A DNA stretch of 64,000 nucleotides from Psammoneis japonica (GCA_008632985.1 QPGO01000015.1:63998-127997); one strand, 5' to 3'; shown: positions 1 to 58,256, counted from the first letter of the stretch. Notes: generated by a model from the sequence alone, not told the origin. Program-made: numbers and translations.

Positions 1-3000
1 AGCATCGCTCTCGCCATGTTGGAGACGGAGCGAATGCCGCGTTCTGCGACGCCGTTCTGATGGTGGGCGTTGGTTCCGCAAAAACGTAGACGTTGTTCGT
101 GCTGTCGCATGTGTTGCACAAAAGCATTGGCCTTGAAAGCGCCAGAATCGGTAAGAAATTCTTGGATGATGACGCCGTGGTCCATCGCGTGCTTTTCAAA
201 CGCTTGCTTCACTCGCACCGTTTCCACAGCAGAGAAACCAAGTTGGTGTTCAATGTGTGGGTAACCGGAGGCATGATCCACAAAAATGCAGCCTCCTTTG
301 CATTGCTGGGACGAGGCCTTCCCGCAGGAGTCGCAGGTTCGGCCGAGGAGACGGGATTCGAAGTGATCCACGCTGACGGCTTGGCCTGGGCGTAGATGCT
401 CGGCTCGAAGAGCACCCTCACGCTCTGGAGTAGCCGCATGTTTGGCAGACTTGAGGGTTCGGCGATGTCCTTTGGCATGTTCGCACACCTCGCACCGCGG
501 AATGTCGCAACGCGAAGCATGCTTGAATTTGGGTCGGAGAAAAGGTTCGGCCCGAAGCAGGCCTTGGACACGTGGCACACTCAGGTGACCAAACCTGAAG
601 TGCCATTCTTGAAGGAGCTTCTGACCGGTGGTGAGGTTCTGGTTGTCCTCGTGCAACACAGACAGATTGACTTGAGGAGCGGGTGCCACCCCGTTGGTCA
701 CAGACGCAACCGGTGAGTGATTTGACGCACACGCGACCTTGAGCGAACCGGCGCCATCAACATGCACTCGAAATGAGTCCTCGTCTCCCTCACATTTTCC
801 TGTCACGCCATGTTCCTTGCTGCAGAGGCATTGTGGGGATAGAAGACGTTGTCCGGCCTGAGGCACATGGTGCGCCATCGTCTTGACGACGAGCTCAGAG
901 CCGTCCTCGTCATGGAAAACCCAGGAGACGGGTCCGATGCCGGCGATGGTTAAGCCATTTGCTAGACCCCCAAGCTTCAATGGGCCATCAGGGATCGTCA
1001 GAGGTCCGACAAAGTCGTTTTCATCGCAAGCAATGGCTGAGGATGCGCCAGTGTCGCATGTGACGGTGTGGCGCTCATGTGCCAGGCTCAGCAAAGCTTG
1101 CGGGTCGGCGGCGAGTTGTGCCAAAGAACGTTGGCCTGTCAACACCTGCACAGAGGCATGAGTGGGACAGGCTTCGGTTCCGTCAGTGGCTGCCTGGAGA
1201 AGCTTCACAGGGTCTTGCCATGGAGTGGTGTCCACGAAACCAAACTTGGTGGACAGCTCATCGAAACGAAAATAGTCCGGAGAGAGCTCCTCAACCGCAT
1301 CAAAGCAGTGGCTCGGCTTGGTCGGGAGCGGGCCGAGGGCTTCCTCTGAATCATAGGTGTCGAAGTAGGACTCGGGGTCTTCTAGAGCTGGAGGGATGCA
1401 GCGGCCTGGGGAAGAGCATGCGTCGTTCTCCCAGAGCTGCGTGAATTTCTTGCTCAGATGATGGTCCGGATCGCGCTCCACAAATTCGGCAAGCACTTGT
1501 CGCGCCTTGATCTTGTTGCATTCCACCAAACTGCCCAGATCTAACACTGTCTTGTCGTCCAGTTCTTCAATGATCGAGTGGACCTGAGAGCCAGCTTTGG
1601 AGAAGCGAGAGGGGACATTGGAGAATGGATGCGTGGGAAGCTGACCGTTGAAAACAGACGCCCAGACCATGACAGCTCCAGTCAGCACCATCCAGGTAGA
1701 GGGGAAACCGTGAATGGTTGGGATGAATGCCTCACGGCGTATACGACGAGGTAAGACAGGAATCGGCGCACAGCAAATGTGCAGTGCCGTTTCCCAGAAC
1801 ATGGCAAACAGCCAGAAAACTCGGAGCTTCAAGAAGTTCCAGAAAAGCTCAAGACGAGAGCTCGGCGTTGCCTCCTCGACGCCACAATCAACATCTTGGG
1901 GTTCGGGATCGTAAAATTCGAAACCGCGACACTGGGTGCTTGGAGGTAAGTGCTCGTAGCTGTCTTCGAAAGGTGGGATGCTTGCCCCGGAAACGAGATC
2001 GTCTGACACGTCGTCAGACAGACCTTCCACGTGAGTTGCGATCGTGTCATAAAACACGTCCGGATTTTGAATCTCATGCATGGCATAGGCCGGAAATGGC
2101 TCGACAGCTGACGGTAGGGAGTCAAAAGAGGAGTGAGCGTCGGAGCACTCGGAGCAATCGTCAGCGTCTTCGGGGTCAACCGTTTCAACCAAGATGGGAG
2201 CGGGTTTGGCCACGGTAGTCTCCCTCTCGGCCGATGGAGCAGGAGTGAACGTGACGGTCGTAGTCACTGGAGTCGAACTCAAAGAGTCGTCCACAGGTGC
2301 ACACCACATGCCGCAACAAACCAGCTCGTTAGGGTCAGAGGGTTCGTCTGTAGGCGGAGACGTCGTCTGCTTGGGAGGACCAAAAGGAATGCCCGAAGAG
2401 GGGTCCGACACAGCAGATAAATTTGCCGCAGCGGTGGTTTCGGTTTTGACAGACAGTTTCCCGGTGTGTTGAGCGGAGGAGTGGCCTTGACACATGCCCT
2501 TCTTGCCCGTTTCCTTGTTCACACACTTGTTGCACCAGTGCCAGGTCATGCCTTTCTCGTCGGTGACAGTGGCACCTTTGTGAACGAAACGCCAGGCCGG
2601 CTTGGGTGGTTTCTTGGAAGGGTTAGTCTGCCGGACATCCGGAGGGTCATCCTTGGACTTGTCCGCCGTGCCCTTTTTGTCCTTCTTGCATTGCTCCTTG
2701 CAGGCAGGACACGTGCGTTTGGTGTGCCCAACCTTGCCACAGCCGCAGCAATGCTTTTCCGAGTTGTCCTTGGCGAGGTTGGATTCCGGGAGCTTGGCTG
2801 CTAAGGCAGGCCAATGAACATCGCTAATGAGTTCGCCATGGGTCTTGGTGATCCAGCCAATGAGGCCAACAGGTCCAAGATCCGCATGGTCGGCATCCTT
2901 GGGGACTTCTGCCGGGTCACGCAAGCGACATTTGCACTCCAAGCGCTTGACGGAGTCAAGCTTGGCAAAAACTTGACGATTGAAAAACTCGGAGGATGTC

Positions 3001-4154
3001 TTTGACACCTTAGACAAAACAGCAGACCCAGTTTCAACTGGCAACGCATGGTCCGTCTGCATGATCTTGAGCAGGCGCAGAGCTTCGGTTGCAAGCTCGG
3101 TGCAGTCCTCACCAGGGCAGGCATCCAGAGTTAAGTCATTCAACTTTTCCTTGGCGGCCTTGACGTCAACCAGAGCACTGGCGTTGCAGGCATCCAGAGC
3201 CATCATAAATGAGACAGACCCCGGAAGATCCTTGCAGTTCTTCAAGTGATCAAACTTGGTTTCAATCTTTTCACGGAAGGTTTCGGTGATGCGCGACTTG
3301 ACGATGAGTTGTGACAAGCCGATGTCATCGATTTCACACTGATCGTAGCCTTCGTCATCTGCAGCCGCCACACGGGTCTCACATTCCTTCTCAAGGTCTT
3401 TGACAGTGAAGGCGTGAAGATGATCAAAAAGGAACACGACCTTGCCGTCGACTTTCTTGAGATGGTAGAAAGTTTCTTGTCCGTGCGACTCGATTAAGTC
3501 CTGAATGGTCTTGACGAAGTGGTCTTTGTCCAGTTCAGCACTGGAACCATTGGATGACTCAATCTGGCCGTTGAACTTGGATGTGGTTGCCGAAGCGAGT
3601 TGATCTCTGAGAGATCGCTCGATAGAGTCGACAGCTTTCGGATGGCAACGTTGCGAGGCAAAACGGTGGGTGCGGGTGTCGGTCTGCTCACACTTGTTGT
3701 TCAGAGCCGAACGACCCAGATGCACTCCATGAGAGTGGTGGACACCGCCGCGAAGCGGCGTGGGGATCGCAGGAGGGTTGGTCGAGGTTTGCATCTTGGC
3801 GAAGGCCTCAGCAAACATCTTGATGGTGTCAGGATCCATGGACATGGTTGTGGATGATTCGACATAGAGGATCGATTATTGGGTGGGGATTGCGATGTAG
3901 AAGATCGCCGTTGGATGGGATGCCGTCTGTAACGAGACGAAGGAGTGGCAGCAACTCCGTTGCGAGTTGATGCCGGTGCGTGGATTGGGGTCGTAACCAC
4001 TTGGGATACAACAATGCACTGTGTAGGATGGAGAGTTCAGGACTCTCTTGAGGTTGTACAATACAACAGAGGATGATAAGAAGCAGTTTTGGGACAATAA
4101 GATACGCTAAAGACACGAATTGTGAGAAGATCTCACGAGGGATTGGAGATGACA
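1..4154 (-). mobile_element. Ty1/Copia (CoDi-like) LTR retrotransposon, 5' half (LTR-gag-PR-IN), degenerate and TpA-mutated; continues off the window start
   Basis: Manual minus-strand translation gives: gag zinc knuckle HCCGCGKVGHTKRTCP (~2705-2755); protease VTCDTGASSAI (~1030-1065); pre-integrase WHFRFGH and CEVC; integrase core VSVDHF...FVDH...FLTDSG...HQNGVAER (1-620). PR directly followed by IN is the Copia order. Confidence 0.92.
4002..4154 (-). repeat. Putative 5' LTR (~153 bp) with adjacent primer-binding site
   Basis: Minus strand begins TGTCA at 4154 and ends ...TATCCCA at 4002. Two nt later comes TGGTTACGACCCC (PBS-like TGG start, 3999-3987), ahead of gag. The second LTR is outside the window, so the boundaries are inferred. 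Confidence 0.6.
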
Positions 4155-4675
4155 TTATGACCTAACGGGTCGTGTGTGTCACTCCGATTACTATCGCTAG
4201 AAGACTCAACGGACATTTCTTCCGGAAGAAGAGATCCATGACCGGAAGCGTCATCCGTGAATCAGACTCGGTTGTTGACTCGTGACTGGTCGAAGCCACC
4301 CGTTGCTGCGCGAAGAATCGTGCGAAAGCACCGTGCGCGAATGCACCTCGATGATGGATTTTAGTGAAAAACGTCCATTTTCCATTCACAATGATATTTA
4401 TCGCATTTTCTCAAATAAAAAATAAAAAATTCGAACTTCTGCGAAATCGAGAGAAGCTGAAGCTTCGAAAGACCGCGGAGTTCGAAAATGAGGGGAAAAA
4501 CTTAGTAAAAACAAGGAAAAATGAAAATTTCGTTTTTTCCTGCAACCCCCAGTAATGAAACAACGAAGGGGAGGTGCAGTAATTCAAGATCGATGCATTA
4601 TACAAACGCCGACCTCTCTCCGATATATGGTATATATCCACTACACTTTGGTCGTTATCGGGCTATTACAACATA

Positions 4676-5665
4676 ATGTCACAGAAGAAAGAGCATGAAA
4701 TCCCTGAAAAATCAATCAAGAAGCAGAGGAAACGTCCTCGCGTGTCGGCTGAAGAACAATTGCATCAAGAACGTACGGAACGGTACAACAAATTAGTTTA
4801 CATGGCCACCAAATCGTTGCATAAGGAAGCCAAGGTGGTGAAGTCATTTGAATGCCAAAAGGTTGTCCGAAAACTGAAGCAGCAGGGTGAGAAAGGCAGC
4901 GAAAAGTTGCAAGACAGACTCCAGGAAATAAAGAAGTTTCCTCTGGATCGTGTGGTCGACGAGTGCATTCAACGTTTAGGAATACCGAATCTGAATCCAA
5001 ACCCGAAAGATGACAAAGAAATCAAAGAAGATAAGAGTGGTAGCGTGAATAGAGATGATAGTCAGTTAATTGAACGAATGCTTCAACACAAGCGCCTTAA
5101 AAGTGCAATGGAAACTTGGAATGAGAAAGTGACCGACTATCGCCGATGGCATCTGCGACGACTCGAGCGTGTCACACAAGTCCCTGATTTCGTATCTCAA
5201 CCCACAAAAAAGAAAATGTCAGCGAAAGCAGTAAAGTCCTCAAAAAAAGAATCTGCGTCTTCTGATTTGTTTGTATGCCTCTCCGGCACAGTAGACAACC
5301 AGAGTGAGAGCAACCACTACGGTCCTGGAGAAGACGAAGACGAGTACACGTCGGTTGTGAAAAAGAAAAAGAACCGGCCAGGTCAGCGCTCCCGCAAGGC
5401 CAAAGCAATGGCAATTCAAGCACGAAAAGAGGGGCGTACTTGGGATCGTTCTCTGAATTGGCGTGAAAAGAAAGTCAAACCTGAACAAAGCGAAGAGTCC
5501 CAAGAGGACACCAGCACGGCACCGTCGAAAGCGCAGCCAGAGGAGATTGCTGCCATGGGTAAGACGTGGAAGGAAGAAGGACAAGCACACCCTTCATGGG
5601 CTGCTCAAAAATCACAGAAGGCCGGAATAGTGGAATTCACAGGGAAAAAGATTACCTTCGACTAA
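4676..5665 (+). CDS. BUD22: Bud22/SRFBP1-family ribosome biogenesis protein
   Basis: 329-aa Lys-rich ORF with the C-terminal Bud22 motifs KKNRPGQRSRK, HPSWAA and FTGKKITFD. Confidence 0.85.
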   Translation: MSQKKEHEIPEKSIKKQRKRPRVSAEEQLHQERTERYNKLVYMATKSLHKEAKVVKSFECQKVVRKLKQQGEKGSEKLQDRLQEIKKFPLDRVVDECIQRLGIPNLNPNPKDDKEIKEDKSGSVNRDDSQLIERMLQHKRLKSAMETWNEKVTDYRRWHLRRLERVTQVPDFVSQPTKKKMSAKAVKSSKKESASSDLFVCLSGTVDNQSESNHYGPGEDEDEYTSVVKKKKNRPGQRSRKAKAMAIQARKEGRTWDRSLNWREKKVKPEQSEESQEDTSTAPSKAQPEEIAAMGKTWKEEGQAHPSWAAQKSQKAGIVEFTGKKITFD

Positions 5666-5857
5666 AAAGCGAGATAGATTCGTTGGCTGTGGTGGAGACA
5701 TACTTCTGTTGAACACGAGTTGTTTTATCGCACAAGAAGCTAGATTACGGAATAAAATAGTGGAACTAAGCTTGTTCTACCTAAATTGTAAAGCTCGTCA
5801 ACATCACCACCAGTCTATAATGTGTTTTAACTTCTAACCTCACCGCACTGCGGGGAA

Positions 5858-6923
5858 CTACGATATTGTGCAATTTCCCGCGGCGGCGCGTTCATTGGCC
5901 TTCTCAACATGCTTCAACCCATCTTGCGCAAGAGTTTTGGATTCTTCCATTTGAGTCTCGATTTGATCAATTTGCTCCTGCTGGCCTCCGACAATGTGAG
6001 CTAAGTCCTTATAAATTTCATTCACTTGGTGCATGCCCTTATTAATGCTTCTTATCTCCTCTTCGCGCTCCTGCATAATCTGTTCGTTCAGTCTCTGAAG
6101 AACCAAGAGTAATAAAGGGATGAGAAGATGTACAGACGAGAACAAGGCACGATTGCTCTAAAACAAAAACTTCTGCACAAAAACCCAACAGCCTGCTTGT
6201 ACTCACATCTTGCTGAAGCTGCATTTGAAGTTGAATGTTCTCCTCCTCTGTTTCAGGTGCAGGTCGTTTCTGCTCCTCTCGACTCTGTTGTTCTATAGCC
6301 CGAGCGCGTTTTCGCTTCATATCTAGCTGGAGATTCTTAAAATTCCCCTCCACCCGACGAAAATCTCGAGTTAATTTGACATGCGTAGCCCTACGTTTGG
6401 ATGCTTCTTGCCTCGGGAGTGACTGTAGCTGTTCTTCTTGGGCACGTAGCTCTTCCTCCAGCTTATCTCCCAGTTGTCGAAGCACATCTACTTGTACCTT
6501 GTATCTATAGAAACAAATAATTTGTTAGATTGTGACACATTCAGAATTCTGCAACACGGTATGCTCAACGAGAAAACAAACGTCCATTTCTGAACTTACT
6601 GAGTGTCGAGAACTGGCGTATCCGCTTTCGTTCCCACCTGTCGCACAATTTTCTCCAGAATTCCAACATTCCTCTGTGAGCAATAATAGAATAGAAAACA
6701 CAAAAATAGTAAGATTTGCTTCTACGCTGTGTCAGTCCGGACTAAAAATAACAACGGTATGTTCACGGACCTGGTATTGAAGAATTTGGTCGCTAATCTG
6801 TGCAAAGCCTTCCGCACCACTCAAGGCCACAGCGTCTTCAGGTATCACTGCAGAAGATGATGGACGACTCTTCTGCCCTTTTCGCTTTGATGCACCCGGT
6901 TTCCCGACATCCTGAAACGACAT
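5858..6923 (-). CDS. Syntaxin-like Qa-SNARE (STX7/PEP12-like), multi-exon, no C-terminal TM, ends CTIS
   Basis: Starts MSFQDVGKP; has Habc-like KLTRDF and a t-SNARE motif (EREEEIRSINKGMHQVNEIYKDLAHIVGGQQEQIDQIE); GT-AG introns at about 6770-6676, 6599-6505 and 6207-6095. Confidence 0.85.
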
Positions 6924-7238
6924 TGCAGCGTCTTTGTCAATGAGGAAAGTGTTGTTTCGAGTTCGAGCACTCACGATTATTTTTTGGAGAGCATGTCGAT
7001 TCACATCTTCGTAGATTCTACGCACCTTGAGTACTGAGCAAAAAAAGGCAACGTGCGAATTCCAGTCTTACAACGATGTAGTAACTGATATAATATGTAC
7101 GTAATATGTCATTTATATATTAATGAATGTGTCAGTCAACATCATCATCTGTCCGACGTCCGTTGGTTTTGGAGTTTGACCGCCGCCCGATCGACGACCG
7201 AAACAAAAACACTGAAAACAGGGGCGAAGTGGTTGACC

Positions 7239-7637
7239 ATGGCGACACGAGGTGTCTTGCAATTAACCAAGCTTCGACTTGTGTATTGCGAGTATGGTGG
7301 TTCCTCGACAGGAATCAGAGAGTTTATCAGCTCAGGGCGAATAGTCAAATGGGCGGAAAATAACCCGGCTGTAGATGTCATTGTGCAAATTCGCAATGGA
7401 CATCACCCCTACATAAAAGGCCAGTATCTATCGGGGAAGCCGCAGCAAGTGTGTGTCAAGAACGAGCAAATCAAGCAAATCTATGGTGTGATGGATAAGT
7501 TGCGCAATAGGAGCGGGAGAAAAATCAAAAAGCTGGGCAAACCAATCAAAACAGCAACACCAAGTGTACAAGGCGTTTGGACCCCGATGCTCAACCTGAA
7601 GGACTCCCCATTCAAAGTGGAGGTTATCCACCCATAG
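7239..7637 (+). CDS. MRPL43: Mitochondrial ribosomal protein mL43 (L51/S25/CI-B8 domain)
   Basis: MATRGVLQLTKLRLVYCEYGGSSTGIREFI...HPYIKGQY...TPSVQGVW matches the mL43 pattern. Confidence 0.9.
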   Translation: MATRGVLQLTKLRLVYCEYGGSSTGIREFISSGRIVKWAENNPAVDVIVQIRNGHHPYIKGQYLSGKPQQVCVKNEQIKQIYGVMDKLRNRSGRKIKKLGKPIKTATPSVQGVWTPMLNLKDSPFKVEVIHP

Positions 7638-7755
7638 GAACTGTTCAAAGCTAAAAATAGTGGCAATAATCAGATTGACATGGCAAGCCATACCGTCAGA
7701 AATTGTAGCTTGCTCGTCGCAAAAGAACGAGAGAGGAATATTCTTTGGTAGTTGT

Positions 7756-10700
7756 TTAGTTCATTTGATTCTTACCCCTTCGAGTTCGTCGCTCGGCATT
7801 TCGTGTCCATTCTTTAGGAATCCTGCGATCTCCTTCTGGTAGCACTTCTTCTAAGATATCTGGTGATACAGATGCCCGCATTACCACACGAACTATACCT
7901 TTGCTCGTATGACCTGTGAAGCAACTATCTCGAAATACACCAGCCATTATTTGGTCACGCTCTAGTCCGGGAGGAAGAAGGTTTTCGCAAGCCAGCAAAA
8001 AGTGGTAATAGGCGGGACTGTTAGGCTTGCAGTCGTCGGACTCCATCATTTCAAGGAAGATACAGCGAGCGACGTGGAAAGCCCTGGCTCTTTGATCCCG
8101 AGATCCATTGGTGTATGCACATGCGTTCAAGGCTGTGGAGTAAGAGATGTGACTGGGTTTTGCTTTGTCATTCCCTTTTTCGTATGCTTTGGCCATGCGG
8201 CGCAACATAGCAAAAGCCTTGTCCGCTTTCTCGCCATCCTGGCTTTTTGCGATTGCATTAATCGTTGCATTGTAGCAATAGAAGTTGGGTCTGGTGTTTG
8301 TATCTCCGTTCCAATAATCTCTCTCCATGCGATCCAACAATCGCATTGCTCTTTCAGCTGCCTGAGGCGAACCACTCTTTGCCCATGCGTTTATGACAGC
8401 GCTGTAACTCACAGCGTTCGGCTGAATTAGAGAATCTTTTTCGTGGCTGAGCTCCTCCATTCGCTCCAAAATCGCTTCAGCTCTCTCTGGCGCACCTTTC
8501 TGTCCGCTGAGGCGAGTTGACAAACGTCAAAATGTTAATAAGAAAGGGAAAATCAGATCAATTGACAAGCAGTCCCATGCTCACCTTTGTGCCCAACAGT
8601 TGATGACCGATGAGAATGTTACCGTATCTGGTTTGACTTCCTCGTTCCCCTCGCTATACAGCTGCTGCATCTGGTCCAGTAGCGACTCCGCCTTCTGAGC
8701 GGCATCGACTAGCCCACTTCGGGAAAAGACGTTAATCATTGTGTTGAATGAGACCCTGGTCGCGCCCACGTGTTGAAGGCTCTCCATTCTTCGAAATAAT
8801 GCCTCAGCTTTATCGACAGCATCGGGCTCTTCACACTTTGAATAGGCGTTAAGAACAGTCGTAAAAGTAACATGGGAGGGCCTTAAATCCTGCCTACCTT
8901 GTTTTTCGGACAAACTGGTCATTCGTTCCAAAACCTCTTCAGCTCGGCGAGCGCTGCCTCCAGAATTGTTCTTTGCAAATCCGTTCAGAACAATATTGTA
9001 CGTAATCTCGTTTGGTCGCATGCTCTCGTGGCCGTCAGCGTACTTTTCCTCCAGCTTCTCAAGGAGCTCGGCTGCTCTTTCAGCGGCTGAGATGCCGCCA
9101 CTCTTCACCAAAGCGTCCATCACAGTATTGTAGCTGACGACATCGGGCTTTACTGTCACGTCACTTTGGTCTTCCATTTCTGCTAGGAGCTTCTCGGCTT
9201 CAAGAACAGATCCAGGTTCACGACTTTTGGCGATGCAACCAAGGACGATGTTGTATGTTTGTCGATTCGGTTTGATTCGGTCATTTCCCGCTTCGTATCC
9301 ACGCCTCATTTCATTTAAAAGCTGTCGCGACCGGTGAACTGAATTTTTCAACCCACTTTTGGACCATGCATCGAGTACAGAATTGTAGCTTACTGAGTCG
9401 GGGCCAACCCCACCAAATGAGGAAACTTCTGTATGTTTGACGCCAATATTTTCAAGTCGGGGCTTCAGTTTCTGCATGTGGCGAAGGAGCGCTTCTGCAC
9501 GTCTTACGGCGTAGTCGCTCACGTGTGGATGCTCGGACGGAAGGCTCTTGTCTCGCTTCACCGTATGTTTAGACCAGGCATCCAAAACTGTGTTATAGGT
9601 AATAAGATCGGGACAGAGATGATGATTTCCTTCGACCAGCGACTTTTCTTCTAAAGCAAATAGAATCGACTCGGCTCTCTCCACGGCATTTGCATGTTTG
9701 GATCGTGTCCATGCTAGAATGACCGAAGAGTAGCTTACTAGGTCAGGGCATGCTTCCAGATTTGAACCGCTCTGATACAAGTCTTGCATTCTACTTAGTA
9801 AGGCCTCAGCATTTGTTGCTGCTTCTGGTCTGCGTGATTTACCCCACGCATCAAGGACTGAAAAAAGACATGAACGGTCCAACAATCATGAGAGGCTGCA
9901 TACAAAATTACTCAAGCATGGCCATTTCTGTGACACACCTGTGTTGTAGCAAACAGTGTTTGGTTGTAAGTGACTTGATTCACTCTCTAACTCCATCAGC
10001 TCTAGAATCTGTTGAGCTTGATCCGGCTGTCCGGCGTTGGAAAATGCTAACATCACAGAAGCGAAGGAGCTTACATCAGGTTTCACACCCACTGGAGACA
10101 CTTGGCTATCCTTCATGCGATTCAAAAGCGAGGCTGCCAGCGTTGCATGTCTGCGGTCCCTACTCGCCCCCATCGCATGAGCAAAGAGAACAGCGTTGTA
10201 CGGTACTTCATTGAGAACAGCAGTTGGCGAATCCTCCATGGCAAGTAACAAAGCCTCAGCTTCTGAAGCTGCCTCTGGCAATCCACTGTGTGCCCAAGCC
10301 GTGATGAGAAGTGTATACGACAAGTGGTCTGGCAATGGGTATGCATCATTCTTCTCCATTTCTTGAACAAGATCACCCATTGCTTGTAAACATCCGGTCA
10401 CAGTGGAGACTCCGTCGAGCGAGTTTGATATGAAATCATCTTCCAAGCATTCACCAATATGATTCAGAAACCAACATCGCTTTGACCATAGGTTAAGGAG
10501 GAGATTGCAACTAAAACGGTCAGGAATCAGCTTCGGATAAGAACTGTTCTCGTGTAGTGCTTGCATTGTCTTCACAACTTGTGCGGCTTTTGCTAGCGAT
10601 TCCCTCAAAAACGAAATATCTATCTGCCGTCTCAATTGCATCTCACGCCATTGAAGGGATCTATTTGTCGCTCGAAAAGGAACCAAGAATGATTCAACCA

Positions 10701-17491: not shown

Positions 17492-17894
17492 TGGAAAGAC
17501 TGGGCGTTGTTGGTGGTCATAATTTTTTCCCTTGCATTTCGCGGCAGAAGGGAAGCGTCGAGCTTGCGGGAAAGAAAAAGCGGCGAGCCTGGCAAATTTG
17601 TGAGGGCAAAGTAGCGATTGTTCCTAGCATATTAATGTATGAACATTGGATAATCCCAAATTTTTGAATATTATTACTCCGTTGTACCTTATTCAACTAT
17701 TAAACTCCTAAGGAAGAATTAATTTTTAACACGAATCAGAATTAATATGTATTCATGGTTTAATAAAATATTGTGTTTGTAACTGATGCGACAGTCTGCG
17801 ACGGACGGACATCGAACATCGAAGTGCGCGCGGCGCTGCGCGGCGGGGATCAGGGGTTGCGACGGTTGAGGTTCAAGTTCCAAAGAGGAAAGAG

Positions 17895-20800
17895 GGCAAT
17901 TTTTTCATGTTCGTGGCCGGTTAAAGGAAAAGAGAAAAAAAGAGGGGAATCAACCGTTGAACACACACACACAATTGACCATGCAACCATGGCCAGAGTT
18001 GCACTGGCTTCTTTTGATCCAGGGTGGTTGCTGCAGGTGCAAAGAGTGGGGCACATTGCAGTTGCAGGAGGGTGACAATGTGGCACTGAGTGTGTGCCAC
18101 CAGGCTGAGCAGCCCAGCTTGGGTGTCAGCCAAGCCCTGCCAGGCCAGCTGCCCTGGCTCCAGCTGCTCTTCCCAGTGCACGTGAGTTGTTGAAGGAGCA
18201 CCACATTGACTCAAAGGCTGTGTTTTAAGTGGGGCAGAGAGAAAAAAACTGTTGTCTTGGCTGGTGCTTGCTTCAGACCCTGCATCATGAGTGCAAGCTC
18301 CTCTTGAGAAATGAGCAAGAAAACAGCCATTTTTGGCGCCTCTCTTTGGTTGCCCACTTGGCATTGCCAACAAATCTTGAACCAAACTTCACTCACAGTT
18401 TCTTCACTCTTCAACCACAAAACCAGGTTCAACTTTTTGTTGGCTTCTTTGTGGCTGGGGTCGCTGTTGCAGGCACAAATGGTGGGCACATGCCATGCGG
18501 CTGCTTGGCAACAAGAGAATGTGATGCCAAGCATGTGCTGCACACCAAGGAGCCAAGCAGCCCAGCTTAGCTTTGAATGGAGCCCCAGGACAGCAGCCAA
18601 CTCTGGGTGATCTCAGCATGGTGTGCTTGTTTGGGCTGTGCTGCACTCACCCCACAGTGCTCTGTGTTGTGGTGGCTTGTTGTGCAAGCCGTGTGGGTGA
18701 GGAGCCAGCAGCCAGCCAGGGCCCATCTTGCAAAGGCCACACATGTTGACCCTGTGCAAAGCTGTGTGAGGGGGCAGGCACAGGGATTTGCAATGATGGC
18801 TTCACAGCCGTTGGCCCCAAGCTGGCATTTGATTGGGAGCCAGTGCTGAGGGGCTGTGAAGTGTGGGGTTGGGAGCCCAGCCAGCTCGCACTCTCTTTGT
18901 TGTCACAAAGTGCTGCCACAGCTGTCTTTGCATTGCAACCAGCCAGGTGCGGTTGACCCCAAGTTGGCACTTGATTTGGGGTGACTGCCAAGGAGCTGTG
19001 AAGTGTGGGGTTGGGCAGTCCAGCCAGCTCACACTCTTTGCTGACAGCAGAAAGCGCTGTCGCAGCTGTCCTTGCGCACACATGGCCAGAGCAGCCTTGG
19101 CACATCCTGCTGACAAAACTGACAAAGACAGCGACTCTTGTGGTTGAGCCACTCAGCACGCAGGAGATCTGGGCACACTCCTGGGAAGTCAAACAGGAAG
19201 GAGGGCTGAGCATTGCCGCCAGTGCCAGGCACAAATGTCAGCTTGTCTTGAGAGAGATTCGAGCCCACACAGCCCCGCGTTGGGCATCTTTGCTGGCAAA
19301 ATGGAAAGCATTCTTGAGCACATTCTGGCATGTGGGCAGCACTGTCACCAAGAGGGCTGCTCTGCAGAGGAAGAGGGAAACAGGCAACAACATTTTGCAA
19401 GAACTGTTTTGTGTCAATGGTCGGGTGGGATGTGGCAGCATCTGGACTTTGATGGAGCATTTGGCGGACAAAGCTTGAGCACAGAGAGTTGTCCACTCAA
19501 GCTCCACAAGTGGCACTTTCCAAAGGTGACACCACACATGGGCCATGTGTTCATGCATCAACATGCCTCAAGCTGCAAGTCACACAAAAAAACCACCACC
19601 AACCTTTCAGCCAACCACCATCATGGACAGAACAGGTCAAGAGGTTCAAAACAAGAGCGATTCATTGACTCTCTTCTGGTTCCATGCATTCAAGAGCTTC
19701 TTGTCCTTCTCAAATGTTTGTTGTGCATTGTTGTCTCTTTTAATTCAAGTGCAAAGAGGAGTCACTTTTCTTGTTTCCATCTCTTGAGATGTTGTTGGTT
19801 GTTGAGTGATGCAACTTTTGTTGTCACATTTTTGGAAATGTTGGCAAACCCGATCACTGCTTGACTGTCAACCCATGCACTGTTTTGAGTCTCCATGGCA
19901 TAAAATGCCATAATTCCAGAGCCCTCAATTGTTTCATCAAACGCAGTGCTTTGAAACACGTCCAACATCAACTCGACTCAGTTGAAATCCCAGTTTGTGG
20001 GCGATGAAAAATCACGAATGTCAAACAAATGGCTGCTTTCGACATCAAGATCCCCGAGTTCAATCCAAATGTGACGGTGCGCCTCACAGCTTGTGGCCAT
20101 GACACATGCAAGCATGCCTCATTGTTGTCATCGCGTCGAGTGCTCGTATCGAAAATGCCGATAGATCAAAGTTCAGGAAAAGGATGGAATACAAATTCAT
20201 TTGTGCATTCATTAGTGGCATTGGCGTAATGACATTTACGGCAGAAGCAATCTAAAATCCTTGTTCATCAAAGGTAAAGATTTCATGCTCGTGGCTGGTT
20301 AACGATAAGCCCATAGCCCAATCTCTTTGTCTGACTTCGAGCCAAAGTAAGCTAAATGGTTAGTGTAAATCGTTAAGTGTCATTTCCACTTCGACACAAA
20401 GAAAGCTAAATGGTTAGTGTAAATACTTAAGTGTCATTTCCACTTCCATACAAAGACAGCTAAATGCTTAACGGTAGTGGTCAGATTTCAAAATCTGAGC
20501 AATACAGAAATGTCAATGATGAACAAGGATTTTAGATTGCTTCTGCCGTAAATGTCATTACGCCAATGCCACTAATGAATACACAAATGAATTTGTATTC
20601 CATCCTTTTCCTGAACTTTGATCTATCGGCATTTTCGATACGAGCACTCGACGCGATGACAACAATGAGGCATGCTTGTATGTGTCATGGCCATAAGCTG
20701 TGAGGCGTACCGTCACATTTGGATTGAACTCGGGGATCTTGATGTCGAAAGTAGCCATTTGTTTGACATTCGTGATTTTTCATCGCCCACAAACTGGGAT

Positions 20801-22891
20801 TTCAACTGAGTCGAGTTGATGTTGGACGTGTTTCAAAGCACTGCGTTTGATGAAACAATTGAGGGCTCTGGAATTATGGCATTTTATGCCATGGAGACTT
20901 AAAACAGTACATGGGTTGACAATCAAGCAGTGATCGGGTTTGCCAACATTTCCAAAAATGTGACAACAAAAATTGCATCACTCAACAACCAACAACATCT
21001 CAAGAGATGGAAACAAGAAAAGTGACTCCTCTTTGCACTTGAATTAAAAGAGACAACAATGCACAACAAACATTTGAGAAGGACAAGAAGCTCTTGAATG
21101 CATGGAACCAGAAGAGAGTCAACCAACTGCTCTTGTTTTGAACCTCTTGACCTGTTCTGTCCATGATGGTGGTTGGTTGAAAGGTCGGTGGTGGTTTTTT
21201 TATGTGACTTGCAGCTTGAGGCATGTTGATGCATGAACACATGGCCCATGTGTGGTGTCACCTTTGGAAAGTGCCACTTGTGGAGCTTGAGTGGACAACT
21301 CTCTGTGCCAAGCTTTGTCCGCCAAATGCTCCGTCAAAGTCCAGATGCTGCCACATCCCACCCGACCATTGACACAAAACAGTTCTTGCAAAATGTTGTT
21401 GCCTGTTTCCCTCTTCCTCTGCAGAGCAGCCCTCTTGGTGACAGTGCTGCCCACACGCCAGAATGTGCTCAAGAATGCTTTCCATTTTGCCAGCAAAGAT
21501 GCCCAGTGCGGGGCTGTGTGGGCTCGAATCTCTCTCAAGACAAGCTGACATTTGTGCCTGGCACTGGCGGCAATGCTGAGCCCTCCTTCCTGTTTGACTT
21601 CCCAGGAGTGTGCCCAGATCTCCTGCGTGCTGAGTGGCTCAACCACAAGAGTCACTGTCTTTGTCAGTTTTGTCAGCAGGATGTGCCAAGGCTGCTCTGG
21701 CCATGTGTGCGCAAGGACAGCTGCGACAGCGCTTTCTGCTGTCAGCAAAGAGTGTGAGCTGGCTGGACTGCCCAACCCCACACTTCACAGCTCCTTGGCA
21801 GTCACCCCAAATCAAGTGCCAACTTGGGGTCAACCGCACCTGGCTGGTTGCAATGCAAAGACAGCTGTGGCAGCACTTTGTGACAACAAAGAGAGTGCGA
21901 GCTGGCTGGGCTCCCAACCCCACACTTCACAGCCCCTCAGCACTGGCTCCCAATCAAATGCCAGCTTGGGGGCAACGGCTGTGAAGCCATCATTGCAAAT
22001 CCCTGTGCCTGCCCCCTCACACAGCTTTGCACAGGGTCAACATGTGTGGCCTTTGCAAGATGGGCCCTGGCTGGCTGCTGGCTCCTCACCCACACGGCTT
22101 GCACAACAAGCCACCACAACACAGAGCACTGTGGGGTGAGTGCAGCACAGCCCAAACAAGCACACCATGCTGAGATCACCCAGAGTTGGCTGCTGTCCTG
22201 GGGCTCCATTCAAAGCCAAGCTGGGCTGCTTGGCTCCTTGGTGTGCAGCACATGCTTGGCATCACATTCTCTTGTTGCCAAGCAGCCGCATGGCATGTGC
22301 CCACCATTTGTGCCTGCAACAGCGACCCCAGCCACAAAGAAGCCAACAAAAAGTTGAACCTGGTTTTGTGGTTGAAGAGTGAAGAAACTGTGAGTGAAGT
22401 TTGGTTCAAGATTTGTTGGCAATGCCAAGTGGGCAACCAAAGAGAGGCGCCAAAAATGGCTGTTTTCTTGCTCATTTCTCAAGAGGAGCTTGCGCTCATG
22501 ATGCAGGGTCTGAAGCAAGCACCAGCCAAGACAACAGTTTTTTTCTCTCTGCCCCACTTAAAACACAGCCTTTGAGTCAATGTGGTGCTCCTTCAACAAC
22601 TCACGTGCACTGGGAAGAGCAGCTGGAGCCAGGGCAGCTGGCCTGGCAGGGCTTGGCTGACACCCAAGCTGGGCTGCTCAGCCTGGTGGCACACACTCAG
22701 TGCCACATTGTCACCCTCCTGCAACTGCAATGTGCCCCACTCTTTGCACCTGCAGCAACCACCCTGGATCAAAAGAAGCCAGTGCAACTCTGGCCATGGT
22801 TGCATGGTCAATTGTGTGTGTGTGTTCAACGGTTGATTCCCCTCTTTTTTTCTCTTTTCCTTTAACCGGCCACGAACATGAAAAAATTGCC
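17895..22891. mobile_element. 5.0-kb palindromic (foldback-like) element with ~2.37-kb inverted arms and a 246-bp spacer
   Basis: Left arm 17895-20270 starts GGCAATTTTTTCATGTTCGTGGCCGGTTAAAGG; right arm 20517-22891 is its reverse complement, and the ORF track is mirrored. GAG flanks both ends (possible 3-bp TSD). No transposase recognised. Confidence 0.8.
20334..20470 (+). repeat. 54-bp tandem repeat (~2.5 copies) in the palindrome spacer
   Basis: GCTAAATG recurs at 20351, 20405 and 20459; unit CAAAG..AGCTAAATGGTTAGTGTAAAT..TTAAGTGTCATTTCCACTTC. Confidence 0.9.
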
Positions 22892-23059
22892 GAGGAGGAG
22901 GTGTCGTCGTGGAGCGAGGAGCGTGACTATGTGGAGCTTGGAGGCCTCTTCCAAGTAGGTAAGTCTCAATGCTCAAGGTTGAAGGTGCATCGACTTCAAA
23001 CAGCAACGCGGCGAAGTGATTTGATTTTCCTTTTCGCCTTAAAGTCGAAAATATAAGGG

Positions 23060-24037
23060 ATGTCTCGGTTGTTGAGTAACAGAAGATGGGGGTTGCCTTT
23101 CTCAGCATTGATGCTCTCGTCTAGAAGCGCAGGCGGCTTCGTTCCGCGGTTGACTTTGCCCTCTGCCACATCGAAAACTGAGAATTTGAAGTCAGCTGGT
23201 AGTTTGATTGCGCGTAGCATGTCGTCAGAGTACGGTATAGGGATGGATCAAGCGGCCATGATGGAGAGCGATCAGTTGGTGGCTGTCGATAGAAACGACG
23301 TGTTGATAAACGGTGCCACTATATCGAAACGGAAGGCTCACGAGTTTAACAAAGAAAGTCCGAGAGGAATCGCGCATCGTGCATTTTCAGTTTTTCTATT
23401 TAACGAGGAGAACGAGATGCTCCTTACTCGAAGGGCTGACTCAAAAATTACATTTCCAGGAGTTTGGACAAATGCTTGCTGCTCGCATCCACTCTTTGGA
23501 ATGAAACCGGAAGAAGTAGACGAGGTTCCAGCGGCGTTTCCTGATTTCCCCGGAATAAAATACGCGGCAATTCGGAAGCTGAAGCATGAGTTAGGGATCG
23601 ATCCAAAATTCGTTCCTCATGAAGATTTTCAGTTTGTGAAGCGATTTCACTATTGGGCTGCAGATACTTTGACGTACGGTCCAGACACTCCATGGGGAGA
23701 ACACGAGATAGATTACGTTTTGTTTCTCAGATGCGCTGAGCAGCCTAAAGTCAATCCTAATTCAGAGGAAGTGTCCGATTTCAAGTATGTTTCGATTGAG
23801 GCGCTCAAGTCTATGATGGAAGAGCCTGACTTGAAGTGGTCGCCTTGGTTTCTGGGAATTATGGAGCGTGGATGCTTTGACTGGTGGGCTGATTTAGATG
23901 GAGCCCTAGAGGGGAAGTATGTTGATCCAGAAGTGACATATTTTGCTTGTTCGGAGGAGCACTCTGCAAGCTACAACCTGCCATCACACTCGGAAGATGT
24001 TGGAGTTCTTTCTAACGAGAAGGAGCCATCGTTCTAG
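23060..24037 (+). CDS. IDI: Isopentenyl-diphosphate delta-isomerase (type 1, Nudix fold)
   Basis: HRAFSVFLFN, KITFPGVWTNACCSHP, WGEHEIDY and WSPWF motifs; N-terminal extension consistent with organelle targeting. Confidence 0.95.
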   Translation: MSRLLSNRRWGLPFSALMLSSRSAGGFVPRLTLPSATSKTENLKSAGSLIARSMSSEYGIGMDQAAMMESDQLVAVDRNDVLINGATISKRKAHEFNKESPRGIAHRAFSVFLFNEENEMLLTRRADSKITFPGVWTNACCSHPLFGMKPEEVDEVPAAFPDFPGIKYAAIRKLKHELGIDPKFVPHEDFQFVKRFHYWAADTLTYGPDTPWGEHEIDYVLFLRCAEQPKVNPNSEEVSDFKYVSIEALKSMMEEPDLKWSPWFLGIMERGCFDWWADLDGALEGKYVDPEVTYFACSEEHSASYNLPSHSEDVGVLSNEKEPSF

Positions 24038-44051: not shown

Positions 44052-44305
44052 TTCGAGCCGCCTATACTACGAAAAGCAAACGCTTTTTCGTTTCTTAACA
44101 TCTAAACACTACACACTTGTTATTCATTCCCACTGAAGCTTGGTTTCTTCGCGAGACTCAGTTCATTTTGTTCCTTCTTTTCCTTGTCATCTTTCTGCGG
44201 CAGACACATGCACTCACGAGAGCGGTCCAAACAATGGAGGTGAGCAAAACAGCATTCAGGTGGTGCCTGACAGGTGTGAATTTAAGTTGAGCAACTGAAT
44301 CGGTG
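44052..44305 (-). pseudogene. Decayed duplicate of the 3' end and 3' flank of the Mpv17/PMP22 gene
   Basis: AAGCTTGGT..GCGAGACTC..CCTTCTTTTCCTT..CATGCACTCA.GAGAGCGGTCCA.ACAATGGAGGTGAG..TGGTGCCT aligns with 46262-46512. Confidence 0.85.
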
Positions 44306-46260
44306 AAAGGGATAAATCTGTGCATTCAAGCTGCTGCTGCACTGGCTGGCATTGCTGCTGCTTTTGGATGCAGGGCCCTGTCCTGCATCTTGTGCAGGTC
44401 GCTTGGTCCCAGATTCAACATTGATCTCAATGCCTTCCTCGGCAACTGATGTGTCGACCCCAGCCAATCTTGCAAGCTGACAGAACAAGAGCAGGAGTCA
44501 AAATCACCGCCTCATCCACAGCTGCCTTCTGCAGAGCCTGCTTGAGCAAACATGGCTGAGACAGCCAAAAAAACAGACAAAGAGCATGCAACAACAGAGT
44601 TGCAGCAATCAACGGTTTCCCCGCAAAATTGAGAGCGCACTGGTCCATGATTTGTGCAACTGTTGTTGACAGAAGCTCTGGTTGCTGGAAGCAACTGGCA
44701 AACATGCACCGGTGCACAATGTGAAAAATGCCCTTTCTGGTTGTCATGCAAAAGACATGGGAGGGGTGACAAATGATGCAATGTGAACAACTTGGACATG
44801 CCGGGCACTTCTTCAACCATGAGTGCATGAGCACAGATGACAGAGTTGCAGCAATCAATGGGCTCTGCAAACCTTCTGAGAATGCCACTCCAGTTTGCCC
44901 TGCTGTTGTTGACAAAAGCTCTGGCCACTGAAGGCAACTGGCAAACATGCTTGCACGCACAACATGAGACACACCCTTTCCATGCCCTTTCTGTTCATGA
45001 CACACCAAAGCACATGATGTGAACAACATGGACAAGCCACACACTTTTTCAACCATGAGTGCATGAGCACAAAAAGCATCAGCAAATCTCACCGCATTCA
45101 CACTTGCTTTCTGACGTCCACTGCATCAGGCTCGACCTGGCACAACAACAAATTGAACAAAAATTCAGTTGTTGTGACACCGGTGTTTTTAACACCAAAG
45201 AACAATGGCTGCTCAGCAAGAAAAGTTGGCAAGGTTCTTGCTGATGCTGACACCACAAAACAAAAGAGCAACCCACCAAAACAAGGTGCAGTGTGATGCC
45301 ACAACAAAGTTGAGAGACCACTGCTGTGCTGAGCTGCGGCACAAGTGCACAAGCTTTGAGTCAAGAAGAAAGTTTCCTTGGCGACTTGCCACTGCTTCAT
45401 TTGCTTGCAGGCAAAAGTGACCACAAAAAATGGGGAGGCTTCAGACAATGTCAAGCATCAGCAGCTCAGAGCAACAATCGTTGCAAAGTCAACAGAGCTT
45501 TGGCTTGTCTCTGCCACACACAGTGGTCAGAGACATGCAAAAACAGTGTCTCCAGTGCCAGCAGGAGCAGACGCGACAGTGCCAGCCAACAAAAAAAGGC
45601 GCAGATGTGCTGCTGACAAAATTGGCCAATGATCACATTTTGCAAAAGCAGGATCTCACAACACTGGACAAAAAGCTTGATCATGGTGGTGAGTGTCAGT
45701 GTTGGTGGCAGTTTGTTCCGATCTCCTCATCACACTGGGCAGCGTCAAAGCGCTCGCTGGCAACTTCGACCAGAGGTGCAGCAACATGGAAAACCTTCTA
45801 CCAGGAGAAACATGCCACCATGTCATTTCAGAGCTGATGTGTCTCATGAGGCATCTCTGGAGCAAAGGTTTTGGTCATGAAAGCACAATGGCTGCAGCAA
45901 AAAAAGCACGATGGACTTGGCAACATTGTTCATTCAGTGACTTTGTTGTCTCAAAAAGTTGCTGGCACCATGTGGGCAACACAATTGCACTTGAGAACAT
46001 TTTCAACTTCTCAAGTCTGGGATGAGACCATAAGCTGTTGTAAGAACAACAGACCAAAGTGCATTGCCAATGTGGCAGTTGAAATGAGACACTGTGGCTC
46101 TAATGGCAATTGTGTGGGTTGATTTTCACACAAGGGGAAGAGCTTGGTTGCTGCTGCCATCAAATCTAATTGAGATTCTTCACGTTGTTGTTTCATGTGA
46201 GAGTTTTGCACCAGGTCAAGTGCAGTGCTGTTCTCTCAATTTCAGATGATGACCATGAGG
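44305..46260. repeat. TG/CA-rich, TpA- and CpG-depleted island (decayed element or pseudogene) with an internal ~240-bp duplication
   Basis: Almost no TA by eye; ACAGAGTTGCAGCAATCAA at ~44593 and ~44840; TTCAACCATGAGTGCATGAGCACA at ~44812 and ~45048. Confidence 0.75.
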
Positions 46261-46352
46261 ATTTCGAATAGCCGCCAGATAGAACATCACGTCTTTTCCT
46301 CAACACTTCAAAACTACATACTTGTTATTTCATGCCAACTAAAGCTTGGTCT

Positions 46353-47334
46353 CTATGCGAGACTCTCTTCGTTTTGCTCCTTCTTTTCCTTATCTTCTTT
46401 CTCCGGCGGATACCATGCACTCAAGAGAGCGGTCCAGACAATGGAGGTGAGAAGAACGACGTTCAGCTGGTGCCTAACCGGGATGAACCGGAAATTTAAC
46501 AACTGGATCGGAATCCAGAATCCCCACTGACATTTTTGAAGTGGCAAGAGTTCCTCGGCGATTCTCGTTTTGATCCTTGAAGCACTTTGTCCCTCCATTG
46601 CAGCCATGGCTGCTAGGTAAAGGCTATTTGAAAACCAACTCCAGTACACAAACTGCACGAAGCAATAGACGCACGTTAGAAGTGAAGGTCAAAGGAACAC
46701 CAAGCGAGCAAAATCAACCTACCTGTTCCATAAACGCCTTAAAAACTGGAATTTTGAGACCAGTCAGGCCAGCACGAACCGTCATCCACTCAAGAAAATT
46801 GAAATGAACGTGCGAACACGGTGCATGAATCGCAAACCCAAAGAATGCTGCTCTTCCTGTCCGAGTATAGTCATAAGGATCCGCTGGTTCGTTCGACTTT
46901 GAAACGACTTGAGGAACGATTTGAGCGACCCAATCACCAACACCCCAAAGGATAGCTCCGGTCACCATTTTCGTCGGCACCGGCCTCGCCTGTAAGTGAG
47001 ACTCGTACCACTGCAACATGCTGAAACCTCCGGGAGACGCCGCAGCTGTGGTAGAGGTCCTTTTCGCCGCGTCTCCCAACGCACGAGACGTCGTCGAGTA
47101 CTGCGGAAACAAAGACCGTGAAGCCTTGCTATCCATTTTGTTGGCGACGAACCGAGGGGTTGTGGAATACGAGGATGCGATGATTCGGTTCAACGAGTTG
47201 GAGACGAGTCGATTAGAGGCAGATACCGTTCCTTTTTCTCCGAGCAATGTCGATGTGGTCGTCACAGCAGCAACAGCGCCAGCCGGAGCCATGGCAAACC
47301 GACCCACGCGTTGGCACAAGATCGACCTCGCCAT
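46353..47334 (-). CDS. Mpv17/PMP22-family membrane protein
   Basis: WYESHLQARPVPTKMVTG...GDWVAQ, DYTRTGR and WGFWIPIQLLNFRFIPVRHQLNVV...WTALLS; intron at about 46721-46655. Confidence 0.92.
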
Positions 47335-58045: not shown

Positions 58046-58047
58046 GA

Positions 58048-58256
58048 TGAGTCTCCGCTCAGAGACCGTTGCAGGAGCCGAAAGACGTGCAAGTCGGTAC
58101 AATCGGGCCACTGTCATCATTCTTGTGAGCCTTGTGGCTCGAAAGCAAACTGCGTCACGTGCGAACGCGCGGAACTAAAGCACACAAAACTGTGCGCGGT
58201 AAACTAAACAGCGCGCGACACTTCGCGCGCACCCAAATCCTGTTCAAATCCTGTCA
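58048..58256 (-). repeat. Putative 3' LTR
   Basis: Begins TG immediately after the PPT (CTGGGGAG|TGACAGG); the distal CA end near 58048 is a guess. Confidence 0.5.

Follow-up and report, generated by a model that had tools for sequence, protein, structure and literature searches.

Organization of the inverted repeat

We analyzed a window of 64,000 nucleotides of Psammoneis japonica DNA (GCA_008632985.1 QPGO01000015.1:63998-127997; positions are counted from the first nucleotide of the window), focusing on an inverted repeat at 17895-22891. A first-pass annotation, made from the sequence alone, had taken this repeat for a simple palindrome whose arms are each hit independently by a TpA-directed mutator. 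The window contains long, mostly uninterrupted genes, and its Pfam content (PPR proteins, a photolyase, a HECT ligase, a kinase and a Copia-type reverse transcriptase) is that of eukaryotic nuclear DNA. The gene adjoining the repeat (23060-24037) encodes isopentenyl-diphosphate isomerase (IDI), and its top named matches are diatoms, with identity of at most 72%. The 5-kb "palindrome" is two head-to-head copies of one non-coding terminal inverted repeat (TIR) transposon of about 2.6 kb. TpA-directed mutation at the DNA level, acting on both strands of mobile DNA, probably explains both the differences at this locus and a loss of TA dinucleotides seen across the window.

The arms (17895-20270 and 20517-22891) are separated by 246 nt, and their gapped alignment contains 25 mismatches and one 1-nt indel at 19478. 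This indel shifts the register, so that mirror positions sum to 40786 over the outer 1583 nt and to 40787 over the inner 792 nt. We placed assembled contigs (Logan) of four public sequencing runs, all from a single sample and study and perhaps the assembly's own, on the left flank, left arm and spacer. Word depth was 59.9 in the unique left flank and, summed over 351 contigs, 3000-10000 across arm and spacer (5700-10100 in the spacer; approximately 2000-3000 for single contigs). The resulting depth ratio of approximately 50-170 assigns arm and spacer to a family of roughly 50-170 copies, and about 50-150 in this pennate-diatom genome is our overall estimate. Other family copies part from the locus exactly at 17895 and 20275, where contig ends are loose, and many copies have differing flanks, as expected for a family of TIR transposons. 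The junction between spacer and right arm is itself high-copy (depth 1902 in run X1; a 909-nt contig in run X2). At the termini, the first 28 nt, starting at 20275, agree at 22 positions with the reverse-complemented final 28 nt before 22890, and the 22-nt core of the terminal repeat occurs three times in the window compared to no occurrence in 100 shuffles. Junction copy number and terminal repeats together identify 20275-22891 as one complete element of about 2.6 kb, of which the spacer is the head. The left arm is a second, inverted copy without the first ~242 nt of the head. The features of the locus are as follows.

17892-17895, no strand: last four bases of the unique left flank, which with AGGA from a contig give the same 8-mer as 22892-22899 (GA-rich, weak)
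17895-17924, minus strand: tail TIR of the left, inverted copy (pattern match at 17903-17924 and alignment)
17896-20270, minus strand: left element copy, inverted, without the first ~242 nt of the head (alignment, depth)
17922-19741, no strand: TA-free, CpG-poor body of the left copy, with only two TA and a longest TA-free run of 1173 nt
19815-20206, no strand: block of nine A:T>G:C changes private to the left copy (arm alignment and run X1 contigs)
20008-20229, plus strand: putative small open reading frame (ORF) in the TA-bearing inner part, mirrored at 20558-20779 on the minus strand
20271-20274, no strand: four bases that separate the truncated left copy from the right copy's head (sequence, contigs)
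20275-22891, plus strand: right, full-length element copy of about 2.6 kb (contig divergence, junction depth)
20275-20302, plus strand: head TIR (22/28 match to the reverse-complemented tail)
20334-20470, plus strand: 54-nt direct repeat inside the head, where TA is normal (spacer observed/expected 0.8)
21045-22863, no strand: TA-free, CpG-poor body of the right copy, with a longest TA-free run of 1358 nt
22217, no strand: the single TpA lost by the right copy only (TA>TG when read as in the left arm), facing 18569, where no alternative letter is listed
22862-22891, minus strand: tail TIR of the right copy (pattern and alignment)
22892-22899, no strand: 8-mer GAGGAGGA directly 3' of the tail, a possible target-site duplication (contig and flank sequence)

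No Pfam family was found at E<=0.01 in four arm ORFs, nor in 19 ORFs of the right copy searched at E<=1, so the element is either non-autonomous or fully decayed. hAT elements make an 8-bp target-site duplication; a hAT transposase had no match among the 19 right-copy ORFs, and assignment to this superfamily is hence tentative. The 22-nt terminal-repeat pattern gave no matches in public metagenomes. A homologue search with the small mirrored ORF returned two matches among 1.84 billion representatives (E 7e-8 and 6e-4), neither a true homologue; both are short repeated motifs within long unrelated proteins, and we dropped them as evidence. Inside the TA-free body there is also a direct repeat of 142 nt with ~80% identity (18807-19075, mirrored at 21711-21979).

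One run X1 contig, at single-copy depth, passes from the left flank at 17895 through AGGA to the head at 20275, skipping the whole left arm. AGGA and the last four bases of the flank spell GAGGAGGA, identical to the 8-mer at 22892-22899. This identity rests on 26 letters in a GA-rich run, and other family copies have a similar purine run before the head, which weakens the 8-mer as a target-site duplication. As a lead, the skipping contig suggests a second allele, or the ancestral state, carrying a single insertion with an 8-bp target duplication.

The same contig could instead mean that the dimer, or the differences between its arms, are artefacts of assembly, of polishing with reads from other copies, of haplotype collapse or of base-calling on modified DNA, and none of the listed contigs spans the left junction of the dimer as it stands in the window. 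We consider such an artefact unlikely. The flanks of the dimer are two different unique genes, which a fold-back chimeric read would not produce, the junction from spacer to right arm was seen in two runs, and a second allele with a single copy accounts for the skipping contig equally well. Read error would also be expected to leave mostly indels rather than the 22 transitions and single indel that separate the arms.

TA-poor islands coincide with mobile DNA

The two copies of the transposon are almost devoid of TA over most of their length. In the outer arms, TA observed/expected is 0.04 and 0.02, CG is 0.19-0.20 and CA/TG is 1.83; in the adjoining flanks TA stands at 0.57-0.60. The edge at the element end falls within ~30 nt. 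The switch to TA-free sequence inside the element is likewise abrupt, near 20987 (mirror 19800), and 20275-20986 bears TA: the head is as highly repeated as the body, yet its TA (0.8) and CpG are normal. The inner 470 nt contain 9 TA in the left copy and 16 in the right.

Across the window there are four TA-poor islands, all of them mobile or decayed DNA, with TA observed/expected of 0.02-0.24 and CA+TG of 1.24-1.9. Host genes are spared. Besides the transposon dimer, the islands are:

1-4360, minus strand: TA-poor island with a retroelement gag/pre-integrase ORF (1291 aa), open to the window edge (Pfam, composition)
44121-46031, no strand: island poor in both TA and CpG, with a decayed copy of an exon lying at one edge (composition, alignment)
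57346-64000, minus strand: TA-poor island with a Copia-type element (ORF 58204-62274) (Pfam, composition)

CpG is normal in the two retroelement islands (0.85-1.0) and low in the arms and 44121-46031. Because the retroelements are TA-poor with normal CpG, loss of TA does not require loss of CpG. Over host genes, TA observed/expected in 1-kb bins is 0.41-0.83, mostly ~0.55, a value that seems low in itself; the median spacing of TA over the window is 18 nt. One long ORF without a Pfam match (51951-56927, minus strand, 1658 aa) carries a diverged tandem duplication of ~490 nt at 54057-55013 (71-84% identity).

TA and CG both become CA/TG in these islands, and we therefore considered whether a modified base, such as a thymine modification at TpA, had been misread in base-calling. 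We rejected this as the main cause, since accurate deep contigs reproduce the TA-free sequence. The literature records that we found for 5-hydroxymethyluracil were dinoflagellate papers only, and none linked this base with diatoms.

Differences between the two copies

Of the 25 mismatches between the arms, 22 are transitions and three are transversions; 16 fall in the inner 792 nt and nine in the outer 1583 nt. Nine mismatches exchange TA for CA or TG, and seven exchange CG for CA or TG. At all eight pairs that had been singled out before, the left arm has TG or CA where the right has TA (20035/20752, 20079/20708, 20093/20694, 20108/20679, 20206/20581, 19878/20909, 19887/20900 and 19585/21202), and the gapped alignment also contains the reverse case at 18569/22217, with TA on the left and its loss on the right. 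The mirrored small ORF reads TAYGHDTYKH..FVYS in the right copy and TACGHDTCKH..FVHS in the left, as described, so that Tyr/Tyr/Tyr is replaced by Cys/Cys/His.

The proposed check against base composition gave a result that depends on how the changes are oriented. Without polarity, enrichment for TA is borderline, because the arms are very rich in CA/TG to begin with; restricted to the inner part, 8/15 transitions are TA exchanges (p=0.012). If the differences are read as A:T>G:C changes in the left arm, 7/9 lie at TpA compared to 3.4-11.7% expected (p=2e-9 to 9e-6). If they are read in the opposite direction, as C>T at CpA in the right arm, 8/12 lie in the required context compared to 48% expected, which is not significant (p=0.16).

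The opposite direction corresponds to a reading in which a process like fungal repeat-induced point mutation (RIP), or ordinary C>T change at CpA/TpG, made new TA in the right copy and left the other unchanged. At 12 of the 16 inner differences the left arm has G/C where the right has A/T, and the eight of them at CpA/TpG are near the 48% that composition predicts; at 19585, moreover, the run contigs agree with the C of the left arm. A CpA>TpA process would enrich TA, however, and the element and all other mobile islands are nearly free of it. This reading also conflicts with the family majority, which has the right-arm state at nine sites, and with the fate of conserved tyrosines in a Copia ORF, which became Cys or His and not the opposite (both below). 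We regard it as very improbable.

Four of the arm differences (two A/G, one G/A and one C/G) fall within six bases at 19659-19664 / 21123-21128. This cluster looks like a small conversion or complex-repair patch, and not like single hits.

Probable loss of TpA in the left copy after the copies separated

To orient the changes we used the family itself. Run X1 contigs carry the right-arm letter, with a share of 0.65-1.00, at nine sites: 19815, 19865, 19878, 19887, 20035, 20079, 20093, 20108 and 20206. Other states are common to both arms and absent from the run contigs (18179/80, 18822, 18980, 19877, 19879 and 20233), from which it follows that the arms are sister copies and each other's closest relatives. 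Given sister arms and a family majority with the right-arm letter, the left-arm states at the nine sites are derived by parsimony. The earlier statement that the right arm keeps TA thus holds for seven sites by contig majority, and is not supported at 19585.

The nine derived changes in the left copy are all A:T>G:C (four T>C and five A>G), so that both strands are hit, as had been claimed. Seven are at TpA (19878, 19887, 20035, 20079, 20093, 20108 and 20206), and the other two (19815 and 19865) are at ApA, in agreement with the AA context noted in the first pass. The dinucleotide at 19878-19879 is found in three forms, with TA in the right arm, CA in the left and TG in the majority contig. 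Among A/T sites, TpA was hit at 7/32 and all others at 2/242 (p=5e-6). Within 19801-20270 the left copy lost 7/16 TpA and the right copy 0/16 (Fisher p=0.007); over the whole arms, read-based polarity assigns seven TpA losses to the left copy and one to the right. The action is lopsided, and not similar on the two arms as had been supposed.

Of the remaining differences, 13 have no alternative letter listed in the contigs, which weakly suggests that the right copy is derived there. One of the 13 is a TpA loss (the partner of 18569) and three are transitions at CpG; the rest are five further A:T>G:C changes, two further G:C>A:T changes (19585 among them) and two transversions. In total we count approximately 15 A:T>G:C changes, 6 G:C>A:T changes and 3 transversions, of which the right-copy share rests on absent contig rows.

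Two further features of the left-copy changes were noted. A preference for C at +1 (TAC), as for TadA, was not significant, with 5/8 lost TpA compared to 4/10 kept TpA. The block also shows an apparent strand switch, from T>C at 19815-19878 to A>G at 19887-20108 (n=9, with 20206 as an exception), which could come from divergent transcription or a break.

Ordinary drift with gene-converted patches might produce such a pattern without any special process, TA exchanges being common only through the richness in CA/TG. The borderline unpolarized test fits this account, as do the many family variants at >=95% identity (351 contigs), the depth of 96-504 at which the left-copy states at 20035-20206 occur, perhaps in other copies, and the four changes at 19659-19664, which look like a conversion patch. 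Polarized, however, 7/9 changes fall on the 3-12% of A/T sites that lie in TpA, and the spectrum is biased toward A:T>G:C (~15 compared to 6); spontaneous mutation spectra are usually biased the opposite way. Conversion could have imported these states, but the donor copies would then bear the same signature of TpA loss. We therefore think that drift and conversion are improbable as the whole explanation. An artefact in the letters themselves would fit the absence of the left-arm letters at 19815-19887 from all contigs, and the origin of the runs in one sample, probably that of the assembly. A context-driven base-calling error, however, would be symmetric on reverse-complementary arms, where the losses are seven and none, and accurate contigs (depth 60, longest 315 kb) reproduce the TA-free composition.

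Several points nevertheless weigh against TpA-directed mutation as the source of the arm differences. The unpolarized test is borderline (9/22 transitions compared to 23.3% expected, p=0.05). Contigs drop rare variants and the polarity comes from one sample, perhaps the assembly's own; the left-arm letters at the four sites in 19815-19887 are in no X1 contig and have no assembly-independent read support, and at 19585 the contigs show only the C of the left arm. Polarity for changes private to the right copy comes from absent rows, and these changes include five G:C>A:T and five A:T>G:C outside TpA. At 20035-20206 the left-copy states, which other copies may share, occur with a depth of 96-504, and gene conversion or polishing from another copy may be their source. 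Since the dimer belongs to a high-copy family, inheritance or gene conversion from other copies could account for some of the differences, and adjacent double differences of CA and TG among copies could descend from CpG or from TpA. Most of the TA loss is common to the whole family and hence predates the two copies, leaving only ~8 events that bear on the claim for each arm. Finally, the equally repeated head keeps its TA, and a process triggered by repeats alone would leave this unexplained. The arm comparison by itself is a small sample, and it is the window-wide signature that gives the case its strength.

Retroelement ORFs and a duplicated exon lost TA in the same direction

Further evidence on direction comes from coding sequence with known relatives. 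We aligned the Copia ORF (58204-62274, minus strand) with 41 of 120 listed homologues and considered the 35 columns in which at least 80% of the 41 have Tyr. The window has Tyr at nine of these, Cys at 16, His at seven and Phe at three. Conserved Tyr was thus lost in 26/35 columns, compared to 59/646 other conserved columns (587/646 kept; p=2e-18). At the conserved Tyr codons 23/26 changes are TAY>TGY or TAY>CAY, and the three transversions all lead to Phe. Other replacements are mostly of the A:T>G:C type as well (Lys>Arg 6, Ile>Val 3, Thr>Ala 3, Val>Ala 3 and Leu>Pro 2), and Lys>Arg, a change in ApA context, affects 6/32 conserved Lys. With 0.88% Tyr the Copia ORF is the lowest of 121 sequences, all 120 listed homologues having at least 3.03%. 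The gag/pre-integrase ORF has a similar composition, with 0.9% Tyr, 3.6% Cys and 4.6% His.

Sense-strand CA and TG are nearly equal in the two retroelement ORFs (373/343 and 315/300), which speaks against editing of a sense-strand RNA genome. RNA editing of the ADAR type, fixed via reverse transcription, is accordingly the poorer fit, since sense-strand bias is missing here and the arm element has neither a reverse transcriptase nor a Pfam match in its 19 ORFs. The preference for a DNA-level process over RNA editing, previously argued from the element's lack of a reverse transcriptase and from hits on both strands, is borne out by the retroelements.

The arms contain many overlapping ORFs. The retroelement polyprotein ORFs at 3-3875 and 58204-62274 (both minus strand) are open for 1291 and 1356 codons, despite the replacement of Tyr. 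Since no stop codon can arise by A>G or T>C, elements hit in this way keep long, open and dead frames, which gene finders would call intact.

A duplicated exon gives a second test. The neighbouring Mpv17/PMP22 gene has an intact last exon at 46296-46511 (Pfam), of which the segment 44091-44303 is a duplicate in decay, interrupted by stops and a frameshift. Among the 30 substitutions between them, TA in the gene corresponds to CA/TG in the fragment five times and the reverse is never seen; CG in the gene corresponds to CA/TG in the fragment four times and the reverse occurs once.

A candidate mechanism

Together, the islands, the retroelement ORFs and the left-copy block describe a TpA-directed A:T>G:C process in mobile DNA, as the first-pass annotation had supposed, and this process explains the block in which arm differences are densest. 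The process is almost purely transitional, has sharp borders, and prefers TpA and then ApA. In the scheme that we favor, it turns TpA into TpG or CpA on both strands of mobile DNA, with ApA as a weaker context. Over time it has removed nearly every TpA from the 1.9-kb element body, the two long terminal repeat (LTR) retroelement ORFs and the third island, leaving host genes untouched. After the two copies separated, the left copy would have lost 7/16 of its remaining inner TpA and two ApA-context sites, and the right copy one TpA elsewhere; we infer that the changes of the left copy occurred at this locus. With only one sister so heavily depleted, an episodic hit on one copy would be a better fit than steady decay of both.

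TadA/ADAT2-type enzymes prefer a 5' T or U. The most likely cause would be a DNA adenine deaminase of a candidate ADAT2/TadA-like type, as proposed for the chlorarachniophyte Bigelowiella natans, with the deaminated adenine read as G at the next replication. The spared head argues against recognition of mobile DNA by simple sensing of repeats. As speculation, the inverted dimer could be a source of hairpin RNA.

The first-pass annotation had suggested a WA preference (W, A or T) like that of Pol eta, and error-prone repair synthesis of this type, recruited to silenced, methylated DNA, would be an alternative to a deaminase. The order of contexts stands, with TA first and AA second (Lys>Arg at 6/32 conserved Lys), and the joint depletion of CpG and TpA in the arms and in 44121-46031 would fit repair set off by deamination of 5-methylcytosine. 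At A:T, however, a large share of Pol eta errors are transversions, and these are rare here (3/25 arm differences and 3/26 changes at conserved Tyr). The two retroelements, moreover, are TA-poor with normal CpG (0.85-1.0), and in Bigelowiella 230/231 events were transitions, according to the abstract, Results and Discussion of the preprint (10.64898/2026.01.13.699255). Pol eta is thus the weaker fit, and we consider it quite unlikely, although repair synthesis of this type gives the same WA motif.

Comparison with known systems

The closest parallel is in Bigelowiella natans, for which we rely on the abstract, Results and Discussion of a 2026 preprint (Mettrop et al., bioRxiv 10.64898/2026.01.13.699255). 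In mutation-accumulation lines of this alga, 231/302 nuclear mutations fell in an integrated giant virus and virophage; of these, 230/231 were A>G or T>C, all 230 at TpA, and they occurred in some lines only. The genome contains 124 clusters depleted of TpA and enriched in CpA+TpG, and its TpA-depleted coding sequences contain an excess of transposase and reverse-transcriptase domains. An A:T>G:C bias is opposite to spontaneous spectra, as the authors quote, and they propose an ADAT2-like candidate DNA adenine deaminase (10.64898/2026.01.13.699255). The same sections mention no diatom, and our literature search found no report of a TpA-directed process in a diatom. Stramenopile-specific proteins with a deaminase fold, including deaminase-SAM-Tudor proteins, appear in an earlier survey (Iyer et al. 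2011, PMC3239186) and would be candidates.

As in Bigelowiella natans, the changes described here are nearly exclusively A>G/T>C (9/9 in the left-copy block), lie at TpA on both strands, and are confined to foreign or mobile DNA that is depleted of TpA and enriched in CpA/TpG. The host differs, being a diatom (stramenopile) and not a chlorarachniophyte, and so do the targets, a DNA transposon family and LTR retroelements rather than viral insertions. Depletion here is near saturation (observed/expected 0.02-0.2), compared to 0.45 in the viral region of Bigelowiella natans as given in those sections of the preprint. ApA is a second context in the diatom (two sites, and Lys>Arg at 6/32), and two islands are also CpG-poor. 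Action there was episodic, with the de novo rate up by orders of magnitude in some lineages only; the asymmetry of 7/16 compared to 0/16 here is only suggestive of episodic action. The process in Psammoneis japonica would be a second instance of a kind so far described once, in another lineage of SAR (stramenopiles, alveolates and Rhizaria).

Fungal RIP is a functional analogue with opposite chemistry. In both, directed, dinucleotide-specific transitions ruin repeated or mobile DNA and the signature is limited to the element. RIP, in another lineage, makes TpA from CpA and creates stops, whereas here TpA is destroyed and stops are impossible; we therefore rejected RIP as the family to which this process belongs, since the defining C>T change at CpA is absent and TA is depleted rather than enriched. 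Duplication as a trigger of the RIP type would suit the repeated or mobile nature of all hit islands, but in the head (depth 5700-10100) TA stays at 0.8.

Editing enzymes of animals offer a looser comparison. APOBEC3 and ADAR edit retroelement cDNA or RNA with a strand bias, and ADAR prefers a 5' U/T. Deaminase-type hypermutation fixed in genomic copies of mobile elements is common to those systems and the present one; unlike them, a DNA transposon without reverse transcriptase was hit here, and CA and TG are approximately equal on the sense strand of the retroelement ORFs. Pol eta in somatic hypermutation produces A:T mutations with TA preferred over AA and is tied to immunoglobulin loci. The order TA>AA is alike, but at least 88% of changes here are transitions, compared to the many transversions of Pol eta. 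Inverted transposon duplications are known from Mu killer of maize and from double-Ds of hAT elements, and those of the Mu killer type act as silencing triggers. The present locus resembles them in having a truncated copy inverted against a full one, whereas a hairpin transcript, and any link from it to targeting, would be speculation.

More tentatively, these comparisons raise the possibility of a diatom genome defence that mirrors fungal RIP. A DNA adenine-deaminating activity aimed at transposons would convert TpA, and less often ApA, to TpG/CpA on both strands and in episodes; it would remove stop codons along with Tyr and thereby leave dead elements with open frames, it would share its origin with the chlorarachniophyte system, and the inverted dimer could supply a guiding hairpin RNA. 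If so, DNA-editing immunity would be old and widespread in the SAR supergroup, and the TpA process would be known to target transposons, in a second SAR lineage and one that is ecologically dominant. Oddities of repeat annotation in diatoms would also be explained, such as long overlapping ORFs, "intact" polyproteins poor in Tyr and rich in Cys/His, and GC-rich, TA-free islands, and base composition would offer a simple way to mark silenced mobile DNA. The system would be tractable, because diatoms lend themselves to transformation and to mutation-accumulation lines. With two sister copies, one hit and one spared, the locus would be a natural example of copy-specific, clustered action.

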